A DNA stretch of 12,662 nt from the UHGV virus genome UHGV-0336296; one strand, written 5' to 3'. Made by a program: the position numbers and the translations under genes. Numbering within the stretch: the first letter of the stretch is position 1; each line of letters begins with the position of its first letter. The stretch is from a virus. Below, in pieces: positions 1 through 12,662 of the stretch. The notes under the pieces are model-generated. The model was not told where the DNA came from and did not search any database. It saw only the letters and a program-made list of their open reading frames with translations.

Positions 1-692
1 TCGTTGAGCAGGTGCAGAAAATGTGGCGTACCGGGAAACGCCTTTATGGTAACGCCAGCGACCTGGTCACCATGATCAAAACGCTTTCCGGTGTCAGCCT
101 CGGCAGCGATCTGCAACCGCGCGGCGTCTGGAAAACGGACAGTAAAACCACCGCCACGGCGACGCATCAGCGTAACGAGGTTGCCAGTACCCTTCGTACG
201 ACCGCAATCAGCGAAGCGGCGTATGCCGTCACCCGATTGCCTGCGCCAACAACTTCCGCGGTGATGCAGAATGCCGCAGTGGGGCAGTCAACAACACCTG
301 CGCAGAGCACTGGCTGGCCTTCCGTCACGCATCCGGCACTGAACAATGCACCGGCGGTGAAAAACACGGTTGACCTGCCAACGTGGGAAGAACTGACTGA
401 CATTCGCGACACACTGAATACGGCAATTGATAAGGAGTTGTCCCGTACAACCAGTGATGCGCTGTTTCTGGCACTGCGCCGGGTGAAAGCAGATCTGAAT
501 GCGGATATCAACACGCGCCTTGAACAGTCTGCACGGATCATTCAGCGCACACCGGATGAGGTTTTACCCGCGCTGGTGCTGGCGGCGACCTGGTTTGATA
601 ACGCGGCGCGTGATGCGGACATTATCCGGCGTAATGCCATTACGCATCCCGGCTTTGTGCCGGTGATCCCTCTGAAGGTGCCAGTGCAATGA
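1..692 (+). CDS. Phage tail-associated protein, C-terminal part (Mu gpN / DNA circularization protein-like by position); 5' end lies outside the window
   Basis: Open frame runs in from the window edge with no upstream stop. Stop TGA at 690-692 overlaps the ATG of the next baseplate gene (ATGA). Assignment is by position upstream of the hub gene, not by recognised motifs. Confidence 0.4.
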   Translation, partial: VEQVQKMWRTGKRLYGNASDLVTMIKTLSGVSLGSDLQPRGVWKTDSKTTATATHQRNEVASTLRTTAISEAAYAVTRLPAPTTSAVMQNAAVGQSTTPAQSTGWPSVTHPALNNAPAVKNTVDLPTWEELTDIRDTLNTAIDKELSRTTSDALFLALRRVKADLNADINTRLEQSARIIQRTPDEVLPALVLAATWFDNAARDADIIRRNAITHPGFVPVIPLKVPVQ

Positions 693-1768
693 ACGACAAT
701 GTCACGCTACGGGTAAATGGCCGGGAGTGGAATGGCTGGACATCGGTGCGCATCGGTGCCGGTGTTGAACGACTGGCGCGGGATTTCAGTGTGGAGATCA
801 CCCGCCAGTGGCCGGGTGATGAGGGTATCACCACGCTTCAGCCGCGCATTAAAAACGGTTCAAAAGTGGAGGTGCTGATTGGTGATGAGCTGGTGATCAC
901 CGGCTGGGTGGAGGCGACGCCCGTTCGTTACGATGCCCGTTCGGTCAGCACCGGTATTGCCGGACGCAGTCTGACCGCTGACCTGATTGATTGTGCAGCT
1001 GAACCGACACAGTTTAACGGACGATCACTGGTACAGATTGCGCAGGCGCTTGCTGCGCCCTTCGGCATTGAGGTGGTGAACAGCGGTGCGCCGTCGGGTG
1101 TTATTCCTGATGTCCAGCCTGATCACGGTGAAACGGTGATCGAGGTGATTAACAAAATACTCGGTCAGCAGCAGGCGCTGGCTTATGACGACCCGCACGG
1201 CAGGCTGGTGATTGGCGGTATTGGCTCAACGCGGGCACATACCGCGCTGGTACTCGGGGAAAACATCCTTTCCTGCGATACGGAGAAGAGTATCCGGGAG
1301 CGGTTTTCTGTTTACCAGGTGGCGGGGCAGCGTGCCGGAAACGACGATGATTTCGGTGAGGCCACCACAACTGCGCTGCGGGCCCGCACAGAGGACGCAT
1401 TTATTGCCCGTTACCGTCCGATGTATATCAGGCAGACAGGGCAGGCTACGGGGGCAGGCTGTATTGCGCGTGCTGACTTTGAAGCCCGACAACGGGCGGC
1501 GCGGACGGATGAAACCACCTATGTGGTGCAGGGCTGGCGACAGGGTAACGGTACGCTGTGGCAGCCCAACCAGCGGGTGATTGTCTTCGATCCGGTCTGT
1601 GGTTTCGACAATACCGAACTGCTTGTCTCGGAAGTCACGTTTACTCAGGACCAGAATGGCACCCTGACGGAAATCCGTGTCGGCCCACCTGATGCTTATC
1701 TGCCTGAACCCGAAGCCCCCGGCGCGCGGAAAAAGAAAAAAGCCAGAGTACAGGAGGACCCGTTCTGA
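689..1768 (+). CDS. Baseplate hub protein, Mu gp44 (gene P)-like
   Basis: 359 aa ORF, first of a string of overlapping, translationally coupled genes. Size and order match the Mu/e14 baseplate module. High GC and codon-consistent. Confidence 0.5.
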   Translation: MNDNVTLRVNGREWNGWTSVRIGAGVERLARDFSVEITRQWPGDEGITTLQPRIKNGSKVEVLIGDELVITGWVEATPVRYDARSVSTGIAGRSLTADLIDCAAEPTQFNGRSLVQIAQALAAPFGIEVVNSGAPSGVIPDVQPDHGETVIEVINKILGQQQALAYDDPHGRLVIGGIGSTRAHTALVLGENILSCDTEKSIRERFSVYQVAGQRAGNDDDFGEATTTALRARTEDAFIARYRPMYIRQTGQATGAGCIARADFEARQRAARTDETTYVVQGWRQGNGTLWQPNQRVIVFDPVCGFDNTELLVSEVTFTQDQNGTLTEIRVGPPDAYLPEPEAPGARKKKKARVQEDPF

Positions 1769-2316
1769 TGAAGGCGATTGAAGCCATGCAGCGACAACTC
1801 CTCGGCCTGATTGGGCGGGCGGTGGTGAAAAGCATCAGTGCCGCCACGAAATGTCAGACCGTGGATGTGTCCCTGATTGCCGGTGAACCCAAAGCCGGGG
1901 TTGAACATCTTGAACCCTACGGTTTTACCGCAAGGGCAAACAGCGGTGCGGAAGCGGTGGTGTTGTTTCCGGATGGTGACCGTTCTCATGCGGTGGTTGT
2001 TACGGTGTCGGACCGGCGCTACCGCCTGAAAGGGCTGCAGACGGGTGAGGTGGCTGTCTATGACGATCAGGGGCAGTCCGTGACGCTGACCCGGGAGGGG
2101 ATCGTGGTGGACGGTGCAGGTAAAACGATCACGTTTCGCAATTCACCTAAAGCACGTTTTGAAATGGACCTGGAAGTGACAGGACAGGTGAAAGACCTGT
2201 GCGACTCCAGCGGCACCACCATGTCAGCGATGCGGCTTGCCTATAACGGGCATCGTCACAGAGAGAACGATCAGGGCAGTAACACCGACAAACCTGATAA
2301 AGCGATGGAGGCATGA
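1768..2316 (+). CDS. Baseplate central spike/assembly protein, Mu gp45-like (gpV family)
   Basis: 182 aa ORF. Start overlaps the previous stop (TGATG). Size and position match Mu gp45. Confidence 0.5.
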   Translation: MKAIEAMQRQLLGLIGRAVVKSISAATKCQTVDVSLIAGEPKAGVEHLEPYGFTARANSGAEAVVLFPDGDRSHAVVVTVSDRRYRLKGLQTGEVAVYDDQGQSVTLTREGIVVDGAGKTITFRNSPKARFEMDLEVTGQVKDLCDSSGTTMSAMRLAYNGHRHRENDQGSNTDKPDKAMEA

Positions 2317-2741
2317 TGGAACTGTGGCTGACGGTGAACGGTAAACGCACCTGCGCCAGCGCACCGCTGGATCCGCTGACCCGCGCCGTGGTGATTTCCC
2401 TGTTTACCTGGCGGCGGGCGGAGCCTGATGACAACGCCGACGTCCCGATGGGATGGTGGGGGGATACCTGGCCTGCGGTACAGAATGACCGTTACGGCTC
2501 CCGACTGTGGCTGCTTCAGCGCAGCAAACTGACCAATCAGCTGGTGCAGACGGTAAGGGGGTATATCCGCGAATGCCTGCAATGGATGATTGATGACGGC
2601 GTGGTGTCCCGTATTGATCTGGATATCCGCCGCACCGGGATTAATGAACTGGGTAACAGTATCACTCTCTGGCGTCGTGACGGACCGGTAATGATTTCTT
2701 TTGATGATCTGTGGAGTGCGATAACGCATGGCGGACAGTGA
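2313..2741 (+). CDS. Baseplate protein, Mu gp46-like
   Basis: 142 aa ORF with ATGA overlap to the previous gene. Mu gp46 is about 143 aa at the same position. Confidence 0.5.
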   Translation: MMELWLTVNGKRTCASAPLDPLTRAVVISLFTWRRAEPDDNADVPMGWWGDTWPAVQNDRYGSRLWLLQRSKLTNQLVQTVRGYIRECLQWMIDDGVVSRIDLDIRRTGINELGNSITLWRRDGPVMISFDDLWSAITHGGQ

Positions 2742-3786
2742 ATTTCAACGCCCGACGCTGGCAGAAAATATCAGTATGCTCCGTAACGATTTATTCGCCA
2801 GGCTGGACGTCAGCGACACGCTCCGGCGCATGGATGAAGACGTGCGGGCAAAGGTGTATGCGGCGGCGCTGCATACGGTTTACGGTTACATCGATTATCT
2901 GGCAATGAACATGCTGCCTGACCTGTGCGATGAGTCCTGGCTGGCGCGACATGCTGCGATGAAACGGTGTCCGCGCAAGGGGGCCACGGCTGCCAGCGGG
3001 TATATGCGCTGGGAAGGTGTCAGCGATGGCCTGAAGGTGACCGCCGGGAGTGTTATTCAGCGCGATGACCTGGTTCAGTACACGGCAACTGCCGATGCAA
3101 CCAGCTCCGGTGGTGTCCTGCGCGTGCCGATCGCCTGCTCAAGTGCAGGTGCGGTCGGTAACGCTGACGACGGTACGGCATTAATCCTGGTCACGCCGGT
3201 GAATGGTCTGCCGTCTTCCGGTGTGGCTGATACCCTTACAGGCGGATTTGATACTGAAGAGCTGGAAACGTGGCGCGCCCGCGTCATTGAGCGGTATTAC
3301 TGGACGCCGCAGGGCGGGGCTGACGGGGACTATGTCGTCTGGGCTAAAGAAGTGCCCGGCATTACCCGCGCATGGACATACCGTCACTGGATGGGAACGG
3401 GAACTGTCGGTGTGATGATTGCCAGCAGTGACCTGATTAATCCCATTCCGGAAGAATCAACGGAAACGGCGGCAAGACAACATATCGAGCCACTGGCCCC
3501 GGTGGCAGGCTCTGATTTGTATGTATTCAGGCCGGTGGCGCATACGGTGGATTTTCATATCCGCGTGATGCCGGACACACCGGAAATACGGGCTGCCATC
3601 ACCGCGGAGTTGCGTTCGTTTCTTCTGCGTGATGGTTATCCGCAGGGAGAACTGAAGGTATCGCGTATCAGTGAGGCGATTTCCGGTGCGAACGGGGAAT
3701 ATAGCCATCAGTTGCTTGCACCGGCAGACAATATCTCCATTGCGAAAAATGAACTGGCGGTTCTGGGGACGATTTCATGGACGTGA
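2728..3786 (+). CDS. Baseplate J-like protein, Mu gp47-like
   Basis: 352 aa ORF overlapping the previous gene by 14 nt. Size and position match baseplate J-family proteins of Mu-like and e14-like tails. Confidence 0.55.
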
Positions 3787-4361
3787 CAAACGATGATTAC
3801 ATCCGTCTGTTGTCGGCACTGTTGCCCCCCGGTCCGGCGTGGTCAGCCGGCGATCCGGCGATTGCCGGTGCGGCACCGTCATTAACCCGCGTTCATCAGC
3901 GTGCGGATGCCCTGATGCGGGAGCTGGATCCGCGCACAACCACCGAACTGATAAACCGCTGGGAGCGTCTGTGCGGCCTGCCGGATGAATGTATTCCGGC
4001 AGGGACGCAGACCCTTCGCCAGCGTCAGCAACGGCTGGATGCGAAGGTTAATCTGGCGGGCGGCATCAATGAGGATTTTTACCTTGCACAGCTTGCTGCC
4101 CTGGGCAGACCAGACGCCACCATCACGCGATACGACAAAAGCACGTTCACCTGCTCATCTGCCTGTACTGACGCGGTGAATGCGCCGGAATGGCGGTATT
4201 ACTGGCAGGTCAACATGCCAGCCGCCACCAACACCACCTGGATGACATGTGGCGATCCCTGTGATTCCGCACTGCGTATCTGGGGCGACACCGTAGTCGA
4301 GTGTGTGCTTAACAAACTCTGCCCGTCGCATACCTACGTAATTTTTAAATATCCGGAGTAA
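3777..4361 (+). CDS. Tail protein, Mu gp48 / YmfQ-like (DUF2313 family)
   Basis: 194 aa ORF overlapping the previous gene by 10 nt, directly upstream of the tail fibre gene as in e14 and Mu. Confidence 0.5.
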
Positions 4362-4364
4362 TCC

Positions 4365-5150
4365 ATGCATCGTATAGACACGAAAACCGCGCAGAAGGAT
4401 AAGTTCGGCGCGGGTAAGAACGGTTTTACCCGTGGTAACCCCCAGACCGGCACGCCTGCCACCGATCTGGATGATGACTACTTTGACATGTTGCAGGAGG
4501 AGCTTTGCAGCGTTGTGGAGGCATCCGGTGCCAGCCTGGAGAAGGGGCGGCATGACCAGCTGCTTACCGCGCTTCGTGCGCTGCTGTTAAGCCGCAAGAA
4601 TCCGTTTGGCGATATCAAATCGGATGGCACGGTGAAAACAGCTCTCGAAAACCTTGGTTTGGGAGAAGGTTCGGCATTACCCGTTGGCGTGCCTGTTCCG
4701 TGGCCTTCCGCCACTCCGCCAACAGGCTGGCTGAAATGCAACGGGGCGGCTTTTTCTGCTGAAGAATACCCGGAACTGGCAAAGGTTTACCCGACAAATA
4801 AATTGCCTGATTTACGCGGTGAGTTTATTCGTGGCTGGGATGATGGAAGAGGGATTGATACTAACCGTAGCTTGCTTTCGTCACAGGGAGATACCATTCG
4901 GAATATAACAGGATTTATAAATGAAGTTAAAGGCACCATTGATACAGCAACTTTCAGGTTACAGACTGGTACTGGTGCTTTTGCCTTAGCATCTCAAGCT
5001 ACGCGAAATATCTATAATAACCTAGGCACATATGAAACAAAAAATACCCCTTACACAGGATTCAGTTTTGATGCATCCAGGGTTGTACCAACAGCATCAG
5101 AGAATCGCCCTCGAAACATTGCATTTAACTATATCGTGAGAGCAGCATAA
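4365..5150 (+). CDS. Side tail fibre protein: constant N-terminal part (to about 4653) fused to an invertible C-terminal receptor-binding cassette
   Basis: 261 aa. GGAG RBS upstream. Contains a tail-collar-like motif ([21 protein letters not shown]). The left crossover site lies inside the coding sequence at 4642-4667. GC drops sharply after about 4860. Confidence 0.75.
4642..4667. repeat. Left invertase crossover site (hix/gix/pix-like, 26 bp)
   Basis: ctctcgaaaacc-tt-ggtttgggagaa: AAACC-NN-GGTTT core with dyad symmetry, as in Hin/Gin/Cin/Pin recombination sites. Confidence 0.7.
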
Positions 5151-5752
5151 TGGATAAAGCAATATTAAATAGTGAGCTTATTGCTACAAAGTCGGGGGAT
5201 ATTACCGTTTATAACTATGATAGTGAGACGCAGGAATATATTTCAGCATCAACTGAATATCTTGCCATTGGTGTCGGTATTCCTGCATATTCCTGTTTAG
5301 ATGCCCCTGGCACACATAAGGCGGGTTATGCTATCTGTCGTTCTGCAAATTTTAACTCATGGGAATATGTGCCAGACCATCGCGGTGAAATCGTCTATAG
5401 CACCAAAACGGGAGAGTCAAAAGAAATCACAGCTCCGGGTGATTACCCTGATAATACAACCACTATCGCCCCGTTAACGCCATACGATAAATGGGATGGT
5501 GAGAAATGGGTGACGGATACCGAAGCACAGCATAGCGCCGCAGTAGATGCAGCAGAAGCACAGCGCCAGTCACTGATTGATACTGCAATGGCTTCAATCA
5601 GTCTGATTCAGCTGAAATTGCAGGCCGGACGTAAACTGACGCAGGCAGAAACAACCAGCCTTAACGCTGTGCTGGATTACATTGACGCGGTGACGGCAAC
5701 TGATACCAGCACCGCGCCTGATGTCATCTGGCCTGAACTGCCGGAGGCGTAG
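5150..5752 (+). CDS. Tail fibre assembly protein (Tfa)
   Basis: 200 aa. Start overlaps the fibre stop (TAATG). C-terminus LDYIDAVTATDTSTAPDVIWPELP is the conserved Tfa C-terminal signature, shared with the opposite-strand copy. Confidence 0.75.
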   Translation: MDKAILNSELIATKSGDITVYNYDSETQEYISASTEYLAIGVGIPAYSCLDAPGTHKAGYAICRSANFNSWEYVPDHRGEIVYSTKTGESKEITAPGDYPDNTTTIAPLTPYDKWDGEKWVTDTEAQHSAAVDAAEAQRQSLIDTAMASISLIQLKLQAGRKLTQAETTSLNAVLDYIDAVTATDTSTAPDVIWPELPEA

Positions 5753-6167
5753 GCCATTCAATATCTGGCGCACCGGAAGTATCGACCAGCTCCAGTGCGT
5801 CCAGATAATCCAGCCATAAATTATATTGTTCCAGCTCGTCACCTTTCAGACGACCAATAGCAGCTTTGCCAGGCCACTGATGGGTATTGATGTAGGTATT
5901 GACTTCTGAAACCAAAGATATTTTTTTCATTTCAGCCGCCAGCACCTCATCCTCTTTTGAAGGCGGCGGGGAATTAATCCATATTGGCCGTCCTGAACTG
6001 TCAGCGCCAATTTCTTTCCCTTCTGGATGCAGCCCAAGAAATTGCTCATATGTTTCTCTGGTAATTTCAATAACATCATCAGGAAGCGTTCCCGCATCCT
6101 CATATTCTGGAAACAATTCTTGCAGATAAAAACTTTTACTTCCGGGTGAAAAGAATACTGAGTTCAT
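5724..6167 (-). CDS. Alternative tail fibre assembly protein (Tfa'), silent cassette in this orientation
   Basis: 147 aa on the - strand, converging on tfa and overlapping it by 29 bp. C-terminus WLDYLDALELVDTSGAPDIEWPTPP matches the Tfa signature. Confidence 0.7.
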   Translation of the reverse strand: MNSVFFSPGSKSFYLQELFPEYEDAGTLPDDVIEITRETYEQFLGLHPEGKEIGADSSGRPIWINSPPPSKEDEVLAAEMKKISLVSEVNTYINTHQWPGKAAIGRLKGDELEQYNLWLDYLDALELVDTSGAPDIEWPTPPAVQAR

Positions 6168-6169
6168 TC

Positions 6170-6624
6170 TTACCGTCCAATGATTAACGCTGAGACGCTG
6201 GTATCTGAAGGAAAGGCTGCATTCAGTGGTTTGTCGACTTTGAACACAATCGTATTATTCCCCCTGACAGCGGCAAAAGAACAAACCGCCGTCGCGTATG
6301 AACCTGTAATATTACTGGATACACCACCATAAGCTGTTGTTGATACCAGAGGGATAACGCCCAGCACCTTATTAGGAAATACAAAGGGCAATGTGGCTGT
6401 GGCAATATAAGACTTATTAGAACCTGTAATGGCATAAGCATTATCAGTCATTCCATTCATCGCCACTGGACCGCTTATACTTACAGTAACCATCTGAATG
6501 ATTAGCCCGTCAGGTTGACGAATCACAAAATTTCCATTGCCACCAGTAACCGTCCAGAAAGACATATCAGGGATTTGGTTTTCCCCGTTGCCCACATTCC
6601 GTTTTGCCGCTTCTCCCAAACCAA
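6170..6624 (-). CDS. Alternative tail fibre C-terminal cassette (Stf'), no start of its own; expressed only after inversion fuses it to the constant N-terminus
   Basis: - strand frame is open from the right crossover site to a stop at 6170-6172, 2 nt upstream of the tfa' start. The sequence at the crossover encodes GLGE in both the expressed and the silent cassette. Confidence 0.65.
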
Positions 6625-6636
6625 CGTTTATGAAAA
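6611..6636. repeat. Right invertase crossover site (26 bp), inverted relative to the left site
   Basis: ttctcccaaacc-aa-cgtttatgaaaa. The inner half is the exact reverse complement of the inner half of the left site. Central AA is complementary to the left site's TT. Lies about 55 bp upstream of the invertase start. Confidence 0.7.
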
Positions 6637-6690
6637 TACAGAAATAACGAGCAAATGGCATCATTCCTGCTTTTGTCAGGGAGATCTACC

Positions 6691-7242
6691 ATGCTTATTG
6701 GCTATGTACGTGTGTCAACAAATGACCAGAACACAGATCTACAACGTAATGCGCTGAACTGTGCAGGATGTGAGCTGATTTTTGAAGACAAGATAAGCGG
6801 TACAAAGTCCGACAGACCAGGACTGAAAAAGCTGCTCAGGACATTATCGGCAGGTGACACGCTGGTGGTCTGGAAACTGGATCGACTCGGTCGCAGCATG
6901 CGGCATCTTGTCGTTTTGGTGGAGGAGCTTCGGGAAAAGGGTATTAACTTTCGCAGCCTGACCGACAGCATAGATACGTCTTCACCAATGGGACGCTTTT
7001 TCTTCCATGTCATGGGCGCACTTGCCGAAATGGAAAGGGAGCTGATAGTCGAACGTACCAGGGCGGGATTGGCTGCGGCTCGTGAAGAAGGGCGAATAGG
7101 TGGGCGTCGATCAAAGCTAACTGATGAACAGTGGGCGCAGGCAGGAAGGTTGGTTGCAGCAGGTGAATCACGACAGCGTGTGGCATTAATTTACGATGTT
7201 GGGATATCGACGCTATATAAAAAATTTCCGGCAACCAGGTAA
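6691..7242 (+). CDS. pin: Site-specific DNA invertase, serine recombinase of the Pin/Hin/Gin/Cin family
   Basis: 184 aa from the ATG at 6691. N-terminus MLIGYVRVSTNDQ carries the catalytic serine motif. C-terminal helix-turn-helix (GISTLYKKF). Adjacent to the invertible fibre segment. Confidence 0.9.
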   Translation: MLIGYVRVSTNDQNTDLQRNALNCAGCELIFEDKISGTKSDRPGLKKLLRTLSAGDTLVVWKLDRLGRSMRHLVVLVEELREKGINFRSLTDSIDTSSPMGRFFFHVMGALAEMERELIVERTRAGLAAAREEGRIGGRRSKLTDEQWAQAGRLVAAGESRQRVALIYDVGISTLYKKFPATR

Positions 7243-7310
7243 ATCATTGAGTTATGCGACGATGATGACTGATGGTGGCTAATGCCATTGATCTCCGTTT
7301 AAATAAAAAC

Positions 7311-7330
7311 TACTGTATATAATATCAGTA
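7311..7330 (+). promoter_or_regulatory. LexA operator (SOS box) overlapping the umuDC promoter -10 region
   Basis: TACTG-TATATAATAT-CAGTA is a perfect CTG-N10-CAG palindrome, 20 bp upstream of the umuD start. A TATAAT hexamer sits at 7318-7323 inside the box. Confidence 0.8.
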
Positions 7331-7349
7331 TTAATTGACGGTGATTATG

Positions 7350-7769
7350 ATGCAGTTTTTCACTCCCTCCGGGTTGCGTGCAGTGCAGCCGCTTCCACTC
7401 TATGGCGATCTTGTACCCTGTGGTTTCCCAAGCCCTGCTCAGGACTACGTTGAACAGCGTATCGATCTTAACGAGCTACTGATACAACACCCCAGCGCCA
7501 CGTACTTCGTTAAGGCATCTGGTGACTCGATGATTGATGCCGGGATCGGCGAAGGCGATTTACTGGTAGTGGACAGTTCACGCAAGGCAGAGCACGGCGA
7601 TATCGTTATTGCTGCGGTGGACGGGGAATTTACCGTTAAGCGCCTACAGTTATGGCCAACTGTCCAGCTTAACCCTGAAAACCGCGCCTGGTCGCCTATC
7701 ATCATCGGGAGCGAAGAAACGCTCGATGTTTTTGGTGTGGTGACGTTCATCGTGAAATCGACGGGTTGA
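7350..7769 (+). CDS. umuD: Translesion DNA polymerase V accessory subunit UmuD (LexA-like self-cleaving S24 peptidase)
   Basis: 139 aa from the ATG at 7350. Cys-Gly cleavage site (LVPCGFPSP), Ser nucleophile motif (ASGDSMID), and Lys in FTVKRL. Sits directly behind the SOS box. Confidence 0.85.
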
Positions 7770-7771
7770 TC

Positions 7772-9040
7772 ATGTACGCGTTGTGTGATGTGAACTCGTT
7801 CTATGCCTCCTGTGAAACTGTATTTCGCCCGGATCTCAAAGGTAGGCCGGTTGTGGTGCTTTCCAACAATGACGGTTGTGTTATTGCCCGCAGCACAGAG
7901 GCAAAGAAACTGGGTATCAAAATGGGTGAGCCGTACTTCAGGCAGAAGGACTTTTTCCGGCGCCATGGGGTGGTGTGCTTCAGCAGCAACTATGAGCTGT
8001 ATGCGGATATGTCTAACCGGGTGATGACCACGCTGGAAGAAATGTCGCCGCGCTGTGAAATTTACTCGATAGACGAGGCATTTTGTGACCTCACTGGTGT
8101 ACGTAACTGTCGTGATCTGACTGATTTTGGCCGTGAAATCCGTGCTACTGTTCTGCAGCGAACGCATCTGACAGTGGGTGTTGGCATTGCCCAGACCAAG
8201 ACGCTGGCCAAGCTGGCCAACCACGCGGCCAAACAATGGCAGCGGCAGACGGGCGGGGTGGTAGACCTGTCCAGTGTCGATCGCCAGCGCAAACTGATGG
8301 CCGCGCTGCCGGTTGATGAAGTCAGGGGCATCGGTCGGCGTATTTCGAAAAAACTGGAGGCGATGGGGATCAAGACCGTACTGCAACTCGCTGATACGGA
8401 CATCCGTTTTATCCGTAAACATTTTAATGTCGTGCTGGAGCGAACGGTGCGTGAGTTACGCGGAGAACCCTGCCTGGCACTGGAAGAATTCGCGCCAGTG
8501 AAACAGGAAATTATCTGTTCCCGCTCTTTTAGCGGTCGTATCACGGAGTATGAAGAGATGCGCCAGGCGATCTGCAGCTATGCCTCGCGGGCGGCAGAGA
8601 AACTGCGTGGCGAGCACCAGTATTGCCGTTTTATCTCGGCGTTTGTGAAGACCAGCCCGTTCGCACTGAACGAGCCCTATTATGGCAATAATGCCTCCGT
8701 GAAGCTTCTGACGCCTACGCAGGACAGTCGGGATATCATCAGTGCAGCCATCCGCTGTCTGGACGCCATATGGCAAGACGGATATCGGTATCAGAAAGCC
8801 GGGGTGATGTTGGGTGATTTCTTCAGTCAGGGCGTGGCCCAGCTCAACTTGTTCGATGATAACGCGCCGCGCCCGGGCAGTGAGAAACTGATGGAAGTGC
8901 TGGATCACCTCAATGCCAAAGGCGGGAGGGGGACGCTGTATTTTGCAGGACAGGGTATCCAGCAGCAGTGGCAGATGAAACGGGAAATGCTTTCTCCACG
9001 TTACACCACCCGATTCTCTGATCTACCCGTTGTCAGGTGA
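7772..9040 (+). CDS. umuC: Translesion DNA polymerase V catalytic subunit UmuC (Y-family polymerase)
   Basis: 422 aa from the ATG at 7772. N-terminus [13 protein letters not shown] and [11 protein letters not shown] are Y-family catalytic motifs. Starts 2 nt after the umuD stop. Confidence 0.9.
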
Positions 9041-9117
9041 TTTTCCGGTGACAGATTCTTCGGAAAACGGTGGATGAGTTTATTAGAAACGATAAATCAA
9101 ATGTTCTTATTTTTGAT

Positions 9118-9156
9118 TACTAAGTCTCAGTTATACAATTCGGCTGAGACTTAGTA
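9118..9156. repeat. 13 bp perfect inverted repeat (stem-loop, 13 nt spacer) between the convergent umuC and KAP NTPase genes
   Basis: tactaagtctcag (9118-9130) and ctgagacttagta (9144-9156) are exact reverse complements. Located at the GC-content break. No clear U-tract on either side. Confidence 0.55.
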
Positions 9157-9163
9157 TGCCAAT

Positions 9164-10912
9164 TTATAGGCAAGAAATTGCGTGTCTTACTGTATTGTTT
9201 AAATCATATATCGCGCCATATTTAAAACTTTCTTGCTTACCTATGAAATAAATGTCAAGTTTTTGATTGAGGTATATAAGGCGCTGCTTTTCATTTGTGG
9301 CAAACTGAGATATGTTACTAATTCTATAATTACTTCTTAAAAAAGCGTTGAATTGCTCTATATCTTTAATGCTCCATTCTTTTAAAATGCACTTGGTCAA
9401 AAATGGTGCGCCAAGTACTTCTAGCGTTTTATAGTTTCCCATGGGATCTAATTTGAGTAATAAGTTAACATCAAATAAAGCCCAACCATCAGTTTCAATA
9501 ATTTCCTTAATTGCCTTTAAGTTTTTTCTCTTTTCAATATTATTATGACGGCCTGATAATATTGAAAATATAAGTTTCCCATCATCAAAGCCACTAGTCC
9601 AACTACTGATTGGATTGTTGTTATGAAATTCAAAGTAAGTAATAATGTCCTCGTCACTAAATTCGAGTGATTTAGAACTCATGAACTGCAATGTTAGTAA
9701 TGATGATTTTGGAAGATATTTATGATAAGTCAAATATTCATAGTTCTGAACCGCCCTAAGCCATTGGTGCAAATCACATGGTATTGTTCTAGAAATTAAA
9801 CCAATAATCGTGGGGAAAAATTCTTTTTCATCTGTCTCCTGTAGTTCTGGTCGAGTTGAAACTGCAATATCAATTGTACTTAAAGGTGTTGGCACATAAA
9901 AAACATCGTCCAATATATCATAAAGAGAAACATGACCACTGTAGTAATTTTTAAGGTGAATATTAATTTTATAATTGTGTAATGTAGACAAAAGTCTCGG
10001 TTCATGTGGATTTTCATCGCTGCTGGAATTTTGGGGTGGGATATGCTGGATGCTGTCAATGATCAGTTCGTCCATGGATTTGTTATGGATAAATAACAAG
10101 ATAAAATATGACAAAATTGAGCTTAGTATGGTTTTAGAGGCGATTTTCCACTCTAGTTCAGGGTGGTTTTCTGCGTGTAAATATAATGGAAGTGCAGTAT
10201 TTAAACACCTCATTAAAATTCTTATGTTAACTATGTTATGGTATGATATTATTTCTTCGAAAATCATTTTGTCTTCAGTGGGGAAGTACTGTAGTTTTTC
10301 TTCAATTATTCTCATATCTAATATGTCGCGAGGGTTTGGGTTGTAATGAAGTGAATCAGAAATAATTTTTTCTTTATGTTCTAATGACAGGTGGGATTCG
10401 GCAGATGTATTAGATATAACAATAAAATCCAAACTAGAGATTTTTGAGGTTGAATATAACGAATGACAATAAGTTAGTATTTCATTGGCCAGTGAGGGAG
10501 TGCTTAATCGCTCAATGTCATCTAATATAAATATGCCACTGAGTTTGGAGAGTATGTTCTCTCTTACACTTGAACCAATGGAACTGAACACACCATTAAG
10601 CACATTGGCACTAGCGGGAGAACCACTGCTTACACTACCCAAACCAGAAATAGTATCTAACCCAGACTTAAGAGTGTCTATATCTTGAAGATAGTAGCAG
10701 TCAATAATCTTTGCTTTGAAATCTGCAAGAGACTTAACGCCTAGTAATGAAATATAATAAAACACATTAAGATCATAAAAACGAGGAAATACATTTTTAA
10801 TAAAAAAAGTTTTACCTGTTCCCCATTTTCCATCAATAAAAATAAGTCCATCTCTTTCGGATTGTAGAAGATGAACTATTTTTACAATCAAATTGCTATT
10901 AGAGTTTTCCAT
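9164..10912 (-). CDS. KAP-family P-loop NTPase (PifA-like); candidate abortive infection / anti-phage protein
   Basis: 582 aa. Walker A GKWGTGKT (the GxWGxGK[ST] form typical of KAP NTPases) near the N-terminus. Walker B-like IFILDDIERL (hhhhDD-DR). Very AT-rich single-gene insert between GC-rich neighbours. Confidence 0.7.
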   Translation of the reverse strand: MENSNSNLIVKIVHLLQSERDGLIFIDGKWGTGKTFFIKNVFPRFYDLNVFYYISLLGVKSLADFKAKIIDCYYLQDIDTLKSGLDTISGLGSVSSGSPASANVLNGVFSSIGSSVRENILSKLSGIFILDDIERLSTPSLANEILTYCHSLYSTSKISSLDFIVISNTSAESHLSLEHKEKIISDSLHYNPNPRDILDMRIIEEKLQYFPTEDKMIFEEIISYHNIVNIRILMRCLNTALPLYLHAENHPELEWKIASKTILSSILSYFILLFIHNKSMDELIIDSIQHIPPQNSSSDENPHEPRLLSTLHNYKINIHLKNYYSGHVSLYDILDDVFYVPTPLSTIDIAVSTRPELQETDEKEFFPTIIGLISRTIPCDLHQWLRAVQNYEYLTYHKYLPKSSLLTLQFMSSKSLEFSDEDIITYFEFHNNNPISSWTSGFDDGKLIFSILSGRHNNIEKRKNLKAIKEIIETDGWALFDVNLLLKLDPMGNYKTLEVLGAPFLTKCILKEWSIKDIEQFNAFLRSNYRISNISQFATNEKQRLIYLNQKLDIYFIGKQESFKYGAIYDLNNTVRHAISCL

Positions 10913-10989
10913 TATAATTGTTATCCTAATTTAAAGAGGTGTAAATAAAGCATGAAATAGTATAATGCTAATTTGAGGTAAAAACATTA

Positions 10990-11580
10990 TTATTCAATTG
11001 AAACAATAAGATATTCACCTTGATTTTTCGCATTACCCATCGCTCGCGTAACTGCATGCCAGATAAACTTGTCAGCTTGCACGGCACCGTAGTCGGTAAT
11101 CGCTTCTGCTTCCTTGCCTCGGCGTCTTGGCGCATCCCATTCCCGGGCTGCCTCCGGTGACAATACAAGTGGCTGTCGGTCGTGTATATCAACCAAGCCT
11201 TCATCGGCCGCAGACGTCACTATTAAAAAACCTTCGGCCTCGTCACTACGTTCGAAGGGGCGCTGCCGATTGCCGCCATGAATATTGGCTACCCATCAGT
11301 TCGGTGAATGAAGTAGGGTTGTTTTTTTGCTATCTTCGGTCTTGTCGAGTAGGGCACCGAAGTTACCTTCAACGCCCCCTCTAAGAACCGTGCGTGAGAG
11401 TTTCCAGCTCACACGGCTCAAGCCTTATCAAACACCACTGTGAAATGATGCGGCAGGTGCAGTCAGACGCGTGGTTCGGGATCGGATATAATCTGTCCAA
11501 TCCGTGTCATATGGATTAAGTGCAGATGCGACGAGTCTGTGACGGACAATTTTGACGCTCTGAGCGTGAACCAGCCTCAG
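10990..11580 (-). pseudogene. Decayed yedK-like SRAP (SOS response-associated peptidase, DUF159) gene
   Basis: C-terminal frame reads LVDIHDRQPLVLSPEAAREW...NAKNQGE, matching the SRAP C-terminal region. Upstream sequence continues the match (PIFMAAIGS, PFERSDEAEGFLIV) only across a 1-nt frameshift and an in-frame TAG. No intact ORF longer than 78 aa. N-terminal boundary is uncertain. Confidence 0.55.
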
Positions 11581-11631
11581 TATTGTAACTTTCCCCGTAT
11601 CAGTGTCCCGATAAAGACCTGACACCCCATT

Positions 11632-12465
11632 TTACTGCTGCCACCAAGCATATAGATCTAGACCTTTGGTAATTACACCTAAGAAAATCCCTAAAACTAT
11701 TAATCCAGTCACTAATGGGTGTTCTTTGAGCCTCATCGTTAACCAATATGGATGCCAGCTTCTTGGCCAAAACCATTTATTGTTAGTTTTGAGAGTACGA
11801 TCATGAATCCGCTCAGCAATATTACAGAGTATGTCGACCTTTCGTAATGTAGACATTTCTAGCTCTCTATACTTACCTTTGACATATGCCTCGGCTTCCT
11901 CAGCGCCGGCTAAGACATCTTTATCAGCGATACCATTTTTTTCAACAAGAGCTAACATTCTACCTGCACGGCCACTTTTGGCGGTATGCCCAATATAGCT
12001 TCGTCCATATATAGAAACGGCAGCTCTCGCTAAATCGAGTTTTCTGTCATCAGTAAGTATAAAGGGCTCGCCACCTAGGACTGAAAATCTATGCTGTAAG
12101 GCCTGAAATCCGTAATTGTTATCTCGCATGTTCCAATGCAGAAATGTGCATTGTGCGTATCTTTTCAGGAATGTAAAGTAGTTATCTAATAGATGATGCT
12201 CAAGGATATCGAGATTTTTTTCATCTGAAACATCAAGACCTAATAATTCTGCGGATCTATTAAGAGCCCAATGATCTGTTTGCCCACTGCCTAAATTTCT
12301 GACAGCAATAGAGGTGATCCTTGTGGATTTACCGCCCACAGCATCATAAAAAGATTCACATGAATAATGGACAACGTAGCATTGATGCGCATTTGCAAAA
12401 CATTTTTCGATAAAACCAATGTACTCGCTGCGATCTCTAATCTGTTGTTTGATGGAAGATGACAT
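11632..12465 (-). CDS. Hypothetical protein with a C-terminal transmembrane anchor; function unknown
   Basis: 277 aa. ATG at 12465 preceded by a GAGGT RBS. C-terminal hydrophobic helix LVTGLIVLGIFLGVITKGL. AT-rich compared with the phage and umuDC parts. No family recognised. Confidence 0.6.
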   Translation of the reverse strand: MSSSIKQQIRDRSEYIGFIEKCFANAHQCYVVHYSCESFYDAVGGKSTRITSIAVRNLGSGQTDHWALNRSAELLGLDVSDEKNLDILEHHLLDNYFTFLKRYAQCTFLHWNMRDNNYGFQALQHRFSVLGGEPFILTDDRKLDLARAAVSIYGRSYIGHTAKSGRAGRMLALVEKNGIADKDVLAGAEEAEAYVKGKYRELEMSTLRKVDILCNIAERIHDRTLKTNNKWFWPRSWHPYWLTMRLKEHPLVTGLIVLGIFLGVITKGLDLYAWWQQ

Positions 12466-12480
12466 CAGTGAACCTCATGC

Positions 12481-12510
12481 AAAAAAAAACCCGCAAAGTG
12501 CGGGCTTTTT
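12481..12510 (-). terminator. Rho-independent terminator (bidirectional hairpin, stronger on the - strand)
   Basis: 6 bp GC-rich stem cccgca/tgcggg with a 3 nt loop at 12490-12504. Followed by T9 on the - strand (12481-12489) and T5 on the + strand (12506-12510). Confidence 0.65.
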
Positions 12511-12637
12511 AAATCACTCAGGAGCCGCGGCTCCTTTGCGTATCCTTTTTTGTCTCCTCACCGTCTGGTCGGTGTCCTGCTGAGACTGCTAACTTCCTGT
12601 TTTTGTTGGTGTTGTCCTTACACCGTCCAATCATGAT

Positions 12638-12662
12638 TGGTGGAGCTGGCGGGAGTTGAACC
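12638..12662 (-). ncRNA. ssrA: 3' terminal fragment of tmRNA (ssrA) tRNA-like domain, or a duplicated att copy of it; gene body would lie beyond the window end
   Basis: - strand reads GGTTCAACTCCCGCC-AGCTCC-A-CCA: T-loop TTCAACT, T-stem CCCGC, acceptor 3' strand CAGCTCC, discriminator A, CCA. This matches the tmRNA 3' end as recalled. Only 25 nt are visible. Confidence 0.55.

Follow-up and report, generated by a model that had tools for sequence, protein, structure and literature searches.

The 12,662-nt stretch of viral DNA analyzed here (UHGV-0336296, hereafter the window) stops partway into the 3′ end of ssrA, the E. coli tmRNA gene, as its initial annotation had observed, and what lies to the left of that gene is, to judge from sequence comparison, the integrase-distal end of a complete-looking tailed prophage of ~43 kb to which the whole window belongs. 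ssrA is a classic integration hot spot for phages and genomic islands, and the junction is an ordinary and already described feature, namely the integrase-distal end of a temperate phage at the tmRNA gene. That the window's own genome continues into a working ssrA, by the mechanism set out below, we regard as very probable, a judgment resting on relatives, since the window itself holds only 25 nt of the gene.

In the mechanism that we propose, the phage attP would bring a copy of the terminal ~28-39 nt of ssrA and, behind it, an arm of ~125 nt and an intrinsic terminator of its own; strand exchange by the integrase would take place within the ~28 bp over which attP and ssrA do not differ. The gene would keep a correct 3′ end, run past its CCA into phage DNA (12511-12637) and stop at the phage terminator (12484-12510), and the displaced original 3′ end would stay as a partial copy beside the integrase, ~41-43 kb away. 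Repeats of the arm that recur on the integrase side would be likely arm-type Int sites, with an IHF-like site between repeats and core as in lambda attP, and the AT-rich genes that separate the tail-fiber invertase and umuDC from the att site would be exchangeable accessory cargo.

The two ssrA ends of the prophage

On the + strand, the last 25 nt of the window (12638..12662) read TGGTGGAGCTGGCGGGAGTTGAACC; taken as the reverse complement, GGTTCAACTCCCGCCAGCTCCACCA, they match exactly the 3′ terminus of ssrA as annotated in E. coli genomes. The initial annotation had read these nucleotides as the - strand 3′ end of a tmRNA including CCA, and a permissive Rfam search of the 363-nt stretch 12300-12662 bears this out: positions 350-374 of the 374 in RF00023 aligned to 12638-12662 (-) at 31.1 bits (E = 5e-11), in a match flagged as truncated on the RNA 5′ side by the window edge. 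By the Rfam consensus structure line, the fragment comprises 2 nt of the T-stem, the T-loop, the 3′ strand of the T-stem, the 3′ strand of the acceptor and ACCA. Its score falls below the 47-bit gathering score because only 25 of 363 nt are present; at the gathering threshold, Rfam reported no tmRNA fragment in the window, the sole match being a group II intron fragment elsewhere, and ARAGORN called no tmRNA or tRNA in the window, as expected for a gene of which 25 nt lie inside it. When two loci of 37-41 kb were shuffled 100 times, the exact 25-mer never turned up by chance. Leader peptides, isrK and rsmX, also raised by the permissive search, were weak and non-significant, rested mostly on the terminator hairpin and were discarded.

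The annotation had confined the tmRNA to the final 25 nt of 12481-12662, and rightly so: the rest consists of a hairpin with a T-run (12484-12510) and a 127-nt spacer (12511-12637). By its inverted repeat and MFE fold, the hairpin, AAAAAGCCCGCACUUUGCGGGUUUUUUUUU on the - strand (12484..12510), is a predicted intrinsic terminator. The stem is a 12-nt inverted repeat, 92% complementary, and the scan reported the same stem on the + strand. The terminator would end ssrA transcription 128-154 nt past the CCA, shielding the cargo gene from read-through, and, because its stem is symmetrical, it may act in both directions. Nineteen of 20 aligned trailers have a hairpin and T-run at this position, with variable sequence, Trabulsiella being the one without a clear example.

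The second direct-repeat copy of the ssrA 3′ end and the integrase, which the annotation had suggested looking for in the rest of the locus, were both found ~41-43 kb away in two complete genomes, CP062811 and CP053731. In CP062811, the second exact 25-mer lies 42,991 bp from the first, beside a 272-aa open reading frame and a 391-aa integrase, and past it come ypjA, a pinH remnant, ypjCB and ileY. CP053731 shows the same arrangement, with its second copy at 12236-12260 of L015; this distal copy abuts a trailer of the CP4-57 type and an IntA-like integrase, and the prophage therefore appears to have entered an ssrA that already carried another element. The 391-aa protein at the far end of the prophage in both genomes is a tyrosine integrase (phrog_1, integrase, E = 9e-65), and the CP062811 protein is 85% identical to Int of phage LLS. 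A direct repeat of the ssrA 3′ end is thus seen at both ends of the element in relatives, the window holding one end only. Within the window no tyrosine integrase was found, the sole recombinase being a serine invertase (6655-7242), so the annotation's remark that no integrase is present there holds; in relatives the tyrosine integrase sits at the opposite end of the prophage.

Counted from the CCA end, the integrase-side copies of ssrA diverge from nt 29 onward (A in CP062811, T in CP053731 and in phage LMessi), the LLS copy deviates at nt 31 and 35, and the ssrA of the lysogens is wild type. From the divergence of the phage-side copies at nt 29 and the wild-type gene in lysogens, we infer that strand exchange falls within the ~28 bp of identity, as an attP/attB core, consistent with the LLS paper, which reports an identity of 29 bp with the 3′ end of ssrA and, from comparison with prophages, deduces integration at this site without destruction of the gene (PMC12315714). 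The predicted crossover region of attP/attB reads TGGTGGAGCTGGCGGGAGTTGAACCCG.

The spacer as probable attachment arm and as trailer

The 157 nt between the cargo and ssrA (12481-12637) are best explained as a phage attP arm with its terminator. The cargo-side arm itself, which in a lysogen would form the 3′ trailer of ssrA, spans 12511..12637, as judged by identity to the attP region of LLS and by its repeats. In a search of phage genomes with 11400-12662, the LLS record (PQ299149) carries at the homologous position an annotated attP and a 39-nt "tmRNA pseudogene," in a region 91% identical to 12483-12662. An ssrA 3′ pseudogene with the conserved arm is carried on the genomes of LLS, phiNP, PhiR12 and LMessi, and Ayreon has the trailer homologue only, without the ssrA 3′ part. 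Trailers homologous to that of the window fall into about five types, of which the LMessi/PhiR12 type is ~75% identical to it; the LMessi integrase is 67% identical to LLS Int, and the second phage of L004 (described below) has a 66%-identical integrase. In every context with the 277-aa cargo gene, L004 included, the spacer and terminator next to it show 100% identity. The trailer and terminator of K-12 ssrA, which is joined to CP4-57, are unrelated to those of the window. Moreover, when viral contigs were scanned with the 25-mer, many unrelated trailers were found after it, among them that of CP4-57 and no fewer than three further common types, and each element therefore brings its own trailer.

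The spacer contains a tandem repeat, GCGGCTCCTTT/GCGTATCCTTT, at 12527-12548, as well as several small inverted repeats, and motifs specific to each attP type recur, in direct orientation, on both the cargo side and the integrase side. In the window type, as represented by CP062811, the cargo-side CCTTTGCGTATCCTTTTT (12535-12552) is matched at 16 of 18 positions by CTTTTGCGTATCCTTTCT, 66 nt past the core on the integrase side; it is this motif that is repeated in tandem in the window. The corresponding pair in CP053731 is CGGCTCCTTTGCG and CGGCTCTTTTGCG; in LLS the cargo-side arm has CGTATCCTTT and GTCCTGCTGAGAC and the integrase-side arm CGTACCCTTT and GTCCTACTGAGAC; and in LMessi, AGTGCAT repeats stand in both arms. 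The segment AAAAACAGGAAGTTAGC (12586-12607, +), situated between repeats and core and largely conserved across the five types of trailer, resembles an IHF site with an upstream A-tract, agreeing with 7 of the 9 specified positions of WATCAANNNNTTR. The arm-binding domain PF12167 was identified on the 391-aa integrase of L010 and on the 390-aa integrase of L004, and the shared arm repeats are most likely arm-type integrase binding sites. By virtue of core, IHF-like site, shared repeats and PF12167, the spacer matches an attP of the lambda type. The likeness to lambda extends to the PF12167-type arm-binding domain, to arms of ~150 and ~90 bp, to a repeat in both arms and to an IHF-like site between core and repeats. 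Unlike lambda, the core here lies inside an RNA gene, one arm would be transcribed as a trailer that ends in a terminator, the same arm sequence is also chromosomal at some sites, and the protein-binding sites are predicted ones. GAC occurs 21, 61, 72 and 83 nt past the CCA in all five trailer types, and at 10 nt in four of the five; a simple test of 11-nt GAC periodicity on single sequences was not significant (P = 0.2-0.7), and the claim of 11-nt phasing was dropped.

The occurrence of the spacer outside this prophage raises a different reading, which we consider unlikely, in which the 125-nt segment is mainly a host-derived, structured tmRNA-precursor trailer or small RNA that the phage has copied so as to restore it on integration, and its conservation reflects RNA function. 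The spacer is present at ~94% identity at the far end of CP4-57 in K-12, where it follows a partial ssrA copy lacking one T and is itself followed by a terminator and ypjA; the distal copy in CP062811 has the same terminator as this far end. In a scan of one genome per species, the spacer followed ssrA in 15 records, mostly of several enterobacterial genera, with three labeled as non-enterobacterial, and in 6 of the 15 it was followed in turn by homologues of the prophage end, such as umuDC, 277-aa homologues, the invertase and SfV-like tail genes. In Escherichia whittamii and Escherichia sp. E1V33, the order is ssrA, spacer, terminator, ~0.6 kb of sequence and then csiD/glaH, lhgO and gabD, and no phage genes or prophage were detected at these two ssrA sites. 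The copies at the K-12 CP4-57 far end and at the prophage-free sites rule out the spacer as purely phage DNA: it is either a native ssrA trailer copied by the phage family or the relic of a phage arm kept for its terminator.

Structure in the trailer speaks for RNA function to a degree. Across 20 distinct trailers, four small hairpins and the terminator have 96.7% of cells paired, and nine pairs change on both sides. Shuffles gave 3.5 such pairs, with none of 500 attaining the number seen in the trailers, and slid controls gave 1-6; these 20 trailers are closely related, and relatedness alone can exceed the shuffle control. G-U wobbles occur at four stem pairs, so that pairing is kept only on the ssrA-sense strand. 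Compensatory changes and wobbles are hints of an RNA-level constraint on the arm, which is not something that an attP arm needs. The trailer also has seven GGA motifs, some of them in hairpin loops. No Rfam family covers the spacer segment, and a literature search returned no description of the trailer sequence or of an ssrA trailer RNA. A pairing of the ssrA acceptor strand with the GGAGCCGCGG palindrome, offered by RNAalifold, was rejected, as the acceptor strand pairs with the tmRNA 5′ end.

Against an origin and conservation as RNA stand several observations. The trailer family tracks a single integrase family, and other elements that integrate into ssrA bring unrelated trailers; indeed, the K-12 tmRNA is functional with the unrelated trailer of CP4-57 (PMC10107115). 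Moreover, a copy of the type-specific repeat is present in the integrase-side arm as well, and that arm lies outside the ssrA transcript. The distant trailer types lose the hairpins but keep short motifs of primary sequence at constant distances from the CCA. It is quite doubtful, and we would give it still less credence, that the ~125-nt trailer is a conserved, structured ssrA 3′ trailer RNA common to enterobacterial chromosomes and one temperate phage family. If it were, the trailer could have a part in processing of the precursor, or a GGA-rich small RNA could be released from it, and the phages would be copying it so that lysogeny leaves the RNA intact.

Continuation past the window edge in relatives

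In relatives, ssrA continues beyond the place of position 12662. Three complete E. coli genomes contain positions 11900-12662 at 100% identity; in these the stretch overlaps the annotated ssrA, after which come smpB-ratA-bamE-recN. In CP062811, ARAGORN called a 363-nt tmRNA with the tag ANDENYALAA, and the gene is followed by smpB, ratA, yfjF, bamE, recN and nadK, the conserved chromosomal side. As the nearest proxy for the genome from which the window came, we take L003 (GCA_021663635.1), which is 99.97% identical to window positions 1633-12662, apart from the segment 4649-6629, inverted between the two, and which continues into a full 363-nt tmRNA gene (tag ANDENYALAA, ARAGORN) and smpB. The check proposed in the annotation, that the flank be followed into a tmRNA gene, was thus positive in L003 and CP062811, with full tmRNA and smpB.

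The annotation had left two possibilities for the fragment, the genuine end of ssrA or a duplicated att copy, and relatives provide instances of both. The 277-aa cargo protein is listed in 707 blocks of a public assembly collection, and among the matches listed, a complete tmRNA gene (363 nt with the tag ANDENYALAA, as called by ARAGORN) and smpB adjoin its gene in 9 of 10 contexts, L003 included. The tenth, L004, is from a metagenome: here an identical 277-aa gene, terminator and spacer adjoin no more than ~40 nt of ssrA-like sequence, this stub is preceded by the 390-aa integrase of another phage, and ARAGORN called no tmRNA at the junction. L004 is evidently a tandem array, and what the phage end meets there is a partial ssrA copy that has been displaced. 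The duplicated copy is therefore real but rare, and the question becomes whether the 25 nt at the window edge are themselves such a copy, displaced when a second element later entered ssrA and moved this prophage, or what is left of it, aside to give a tandem array. L004 has exactly this configuration, and serial integration at ssrA is seen in CP053731 as well. However, the full gene is present in the 9 of 10 contexts listed and in all three complete genomes with the identical junction, and the nearest relative, L003, has a full ssrA. The L004 copy, moreover, deviates from ssrA at the base matching 12662 (A, not G), where the window has the wild-type base, although this is a single base and leaves room for other displaced copies. 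Displacement of the window's own ssrA end is accordingly most improbable in our estimation, and the genuine gene end, with the phage arm beside it, is the reading that we carry forward.

The prophage, its cargo and known relatives

What the window holds of the phage is best explained as part of a temperate phage with SfV/Mu-like tail genes, a lambdoid layout and an integrase of the LLS-type family. The first half (1..6629, +) is a tail module identified by phage identity and Pfam, comprising a DNA circularization protein cut at the window start, a Mu/SfV-like baseplate with Mu-like gp44-48/baseplate J, and tail fiber and assembly genes; positions 1-4668 are 97.5-98% identical to the baseplate region of SfII, SfIV, SfV, SfI and several E. 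coli phages. An invertible tail-fiber segment occupies 4649-6629, bounded by 20-nt inverted repeats (4649-4668 and 6610-6629), and is followed on the + strand by the recombinase noted above, which by its Resolvase and HTH_7 domains is a serine DNA invertase and not an integrase, and by umuD/umuC homologues (7335-9040, +; Peptidase_S24 and IMS in the near-identical L003, and RefSeq annotation). Leftward of these, the CP062811 prophage continues through tail, head (portal, capsid), terminase, lysis, antiterminator, replication and repressor modules to its end, with the 391-aa site-specific integrase and the 272-aa open reading frame.

The cargo is set off by composition, with a GC content of 0.31-0.34 at 9001-11000 and 0.39-0.43 at 11501-12500, vs 0.55-0.60 in the tail genes. 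It includes a 582-aa KAP-like P-loop NTPase (9164..10912, -; KAP_NTPase, E = 9e-7 in Pfam; PDC-S49, E = 8e-14 in PADLOC), a candidate anti-phage defense gene. The interval from this gene to the 277-aa gene contains a fragment of an SRAP peptidase gene, coding for the C-terminal part (10990-11220), and the final ~280 nt of a group II intron. The 277-aa protein itself (11632..12465, -; from the open reading frame list) belongs to phrog_8766, of unknown function (E = 2e-54); no Pfam, NCBIfam or PADLOC match and no sequence relative in the PDB was found for it, and a single-sequence AlphaFold model was poor (pLDDT 43). Homologues of it occupy the same position at 77% identity in Raoultella and 53% in Klebsiella spallanzanii, and the contents of the slot vary among related prophages and phages, as expected if the slot next to attP is, as it appears to be, an exchangeable position for accessory cargo. 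The window has one Chi site, no more than chance; the LLS genome is rich in Chi sites (PMC12315714).

Gene content also bears on the annotation's proposal that the AT-rich genes are cargo of an ssrA-linked island. The part that stands is that they would be accessory cargo of an integrated mobile element; the element is a tailed prophage and not an unspecified island. E. coli K-12 ssrA does carry an island, and an IntA-like integrase lies further along the CP053731 array, but a non-phage island of the P4/CP4-57 kind, its ssrA-proximal integrase lost or just outside the window, has next to no probability and is refuted by the gene content of window and relatives, given the SfII/SfIV/SfV/SfI-like baseplate and tail-fiber genes of the window, the head, terminase, lysis and repressor modules of the complete genomes, a trailer unrelated to that of CP4-57 and, as neighbor of ssrA, the 277-aa gene instead of IntA.

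The nearest described system for such a prophage is LLS, which shares the succession of tail fiber, invertase, cargo, terminator, ~125-nt arm, ssrA fragment, ~271-aa open reading frame, 391-aa integrase and excisionase, with 85% identity of the integrase (to that of CP062811), 91% identity of the arm and the same ssrA 3′ end as target. LLS differs in its cargo and is not among the best phage matches over 1-4668, where the window has a myovirus baseplate of the SfV/SfII type, and the ~271-aa open reading frames beside the integrase are only 28% identical between LLS and the CP062811 prophage. CP4-57 is more distant: its IntA shares just 17% identity with LLS Int (PMC12315714), and its excision changes the ssrA 3′ end (PMC10107115). 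K-12 CP4-57 shares with the window prophage the ssrA target and a partial copy of the ssrA 3′ end at the far end (with one T missing in K-12), but it is P4-like, has IntA directly beside ssrA, has an unrelated trailer and terminator and is without tail genes. A further parallel is Haemophilus phage HP1, whose DNA includes a long segment identical to the 3′ portion of a host tRNA operon, so that the genes are rebuilt on integration. Here, similarly, ~160-190 nt of similarity link the phage arm and the chromosomal ssrA flank; host, target and integrase are different, and the similarity beyond the core is ~91-94%, not identity.

For annotation, the junction fixes the right-hand boundary of the prophage, and every gene of the window, including the AT-rich candidate defense genes and umuDC, is phage-borne. 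The integrase family and its ssrA target have already been described for phage LLS, and current understanding is unchanged. The case illustrates how a phage family can keep ssrA working, by bringing along the last ~28-39 nt of the gene together with a terminator.

Cargo genes and an intron remnant beside the att site

The prophage carries DNA-damage-related cargo in 2 forms, namely, homologues of umuD and umuC (error-prone polymerase V; 7335-9040, + strand) and, near them, a C-terminal fragment of a gene for an SOS-response-associated peptidase (SRAP; 10990-11220, − strand). The intervening KAP-like P-loop NTPase of 582 aa (9164-10912, − strand; GC 0.31-0.34) has matches to PDC-S49, a family of candidate defence genes in PADLOC (E = 8e-14), and to phrog_4740, and its gene is probably a phage-borne defence gene. 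Directly beside the att site lies the gene for a 277-aa protein (11632-12465, − strand), for which phrog_8766 was the sole match and no sequence match was obtained in Pfam, NCBIfam, PADLOC or PDB. This protein is widespread, and prophages of Raoultella and Klebsiella spallanzanii encode homologues with 77% and 53% identity at the equivalent position.

A group II intron is represented by its 3′ remnant, also on the − strand, which is cut off where the 277-aa reading frame has its stop codon. This remnant consists of domains V-VI (11344-11421; 53.6 bits against Rfam RF00029), preceded by a 65-aa ORF (11428-11625) with the C-terminal end ...ALNPYDTDWTDYIRSR; this resembles the C-terminal part of a protein encoded by such an intron. 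Matches to the remnant were found only in the 3 complete E. coli genomes with the cargo module of the window. In one complete genome, CP062811, an IS3-family element is inserted within it, at window positions 11387-11392.

Repeated use of ssrA and the distribution of the trailer

Repeated integration at ssrA was observed in 2 settings. In the complete E. coli genome CP053731 (L015 10789-13164), the ssrA copy displaced by the window-type prophage stands beside a trailer of the CP4-57 type and an integrase similar to IntA. In the metagenome contig L004 (8498-10000), a second phage, with an integrase of the LLS Int family (66% identity to LLS Int), is inserted between ssrA and a remnant of a window-type prophage.

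The ~125-nt sequence of the phage att arm is also found 3′ of ssrA at prophage-free sites, in the order ssrA-trailer-terminator-csiD, in Escherichia sp. E1V33 and E. whittamii (L023 and L027). In K-12 (L016 2284-2660), it lies at the far end of CP4-57, adjoining ypjA. Comparison of 20 trailers revealed compensatory changes in the trailer hairpins. Its origin could be either a trailer of the host or a phage arm preserved as a relic. A homologue (~88% identity) occurs without adjoining ssrA 3′ sequence in phage Ayreon (L037 3001-3107), near an integrase encoded on the other strand, and could be what is left of an earlier ssrA-type attP.

Contigs labelled Chryseobacterium, Phyllobacterium and Ancylobacter (L019, L021 and L031) also have an ssrA 3′ end of enterobacterial type with the ~125-nt trailer, and L019 additionally has a umuC with 88% identity; contamination or mislabelling of these assemblies is probable.

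An invertible tail-fibre segment

The tail-fibre segment at 4649-6629 is bounded by inverted repeats of 20 nt each (4649-4668 and 6610-6629; 95% complementary) and adjoins a gene for a Gin/Pin-type serine invertase (6655-7242). The segment has opposite orientations in the window and in the contig L003, while the rest is 99.9% identical, which is direct evidence that the tail-fibre switch is active in nature.
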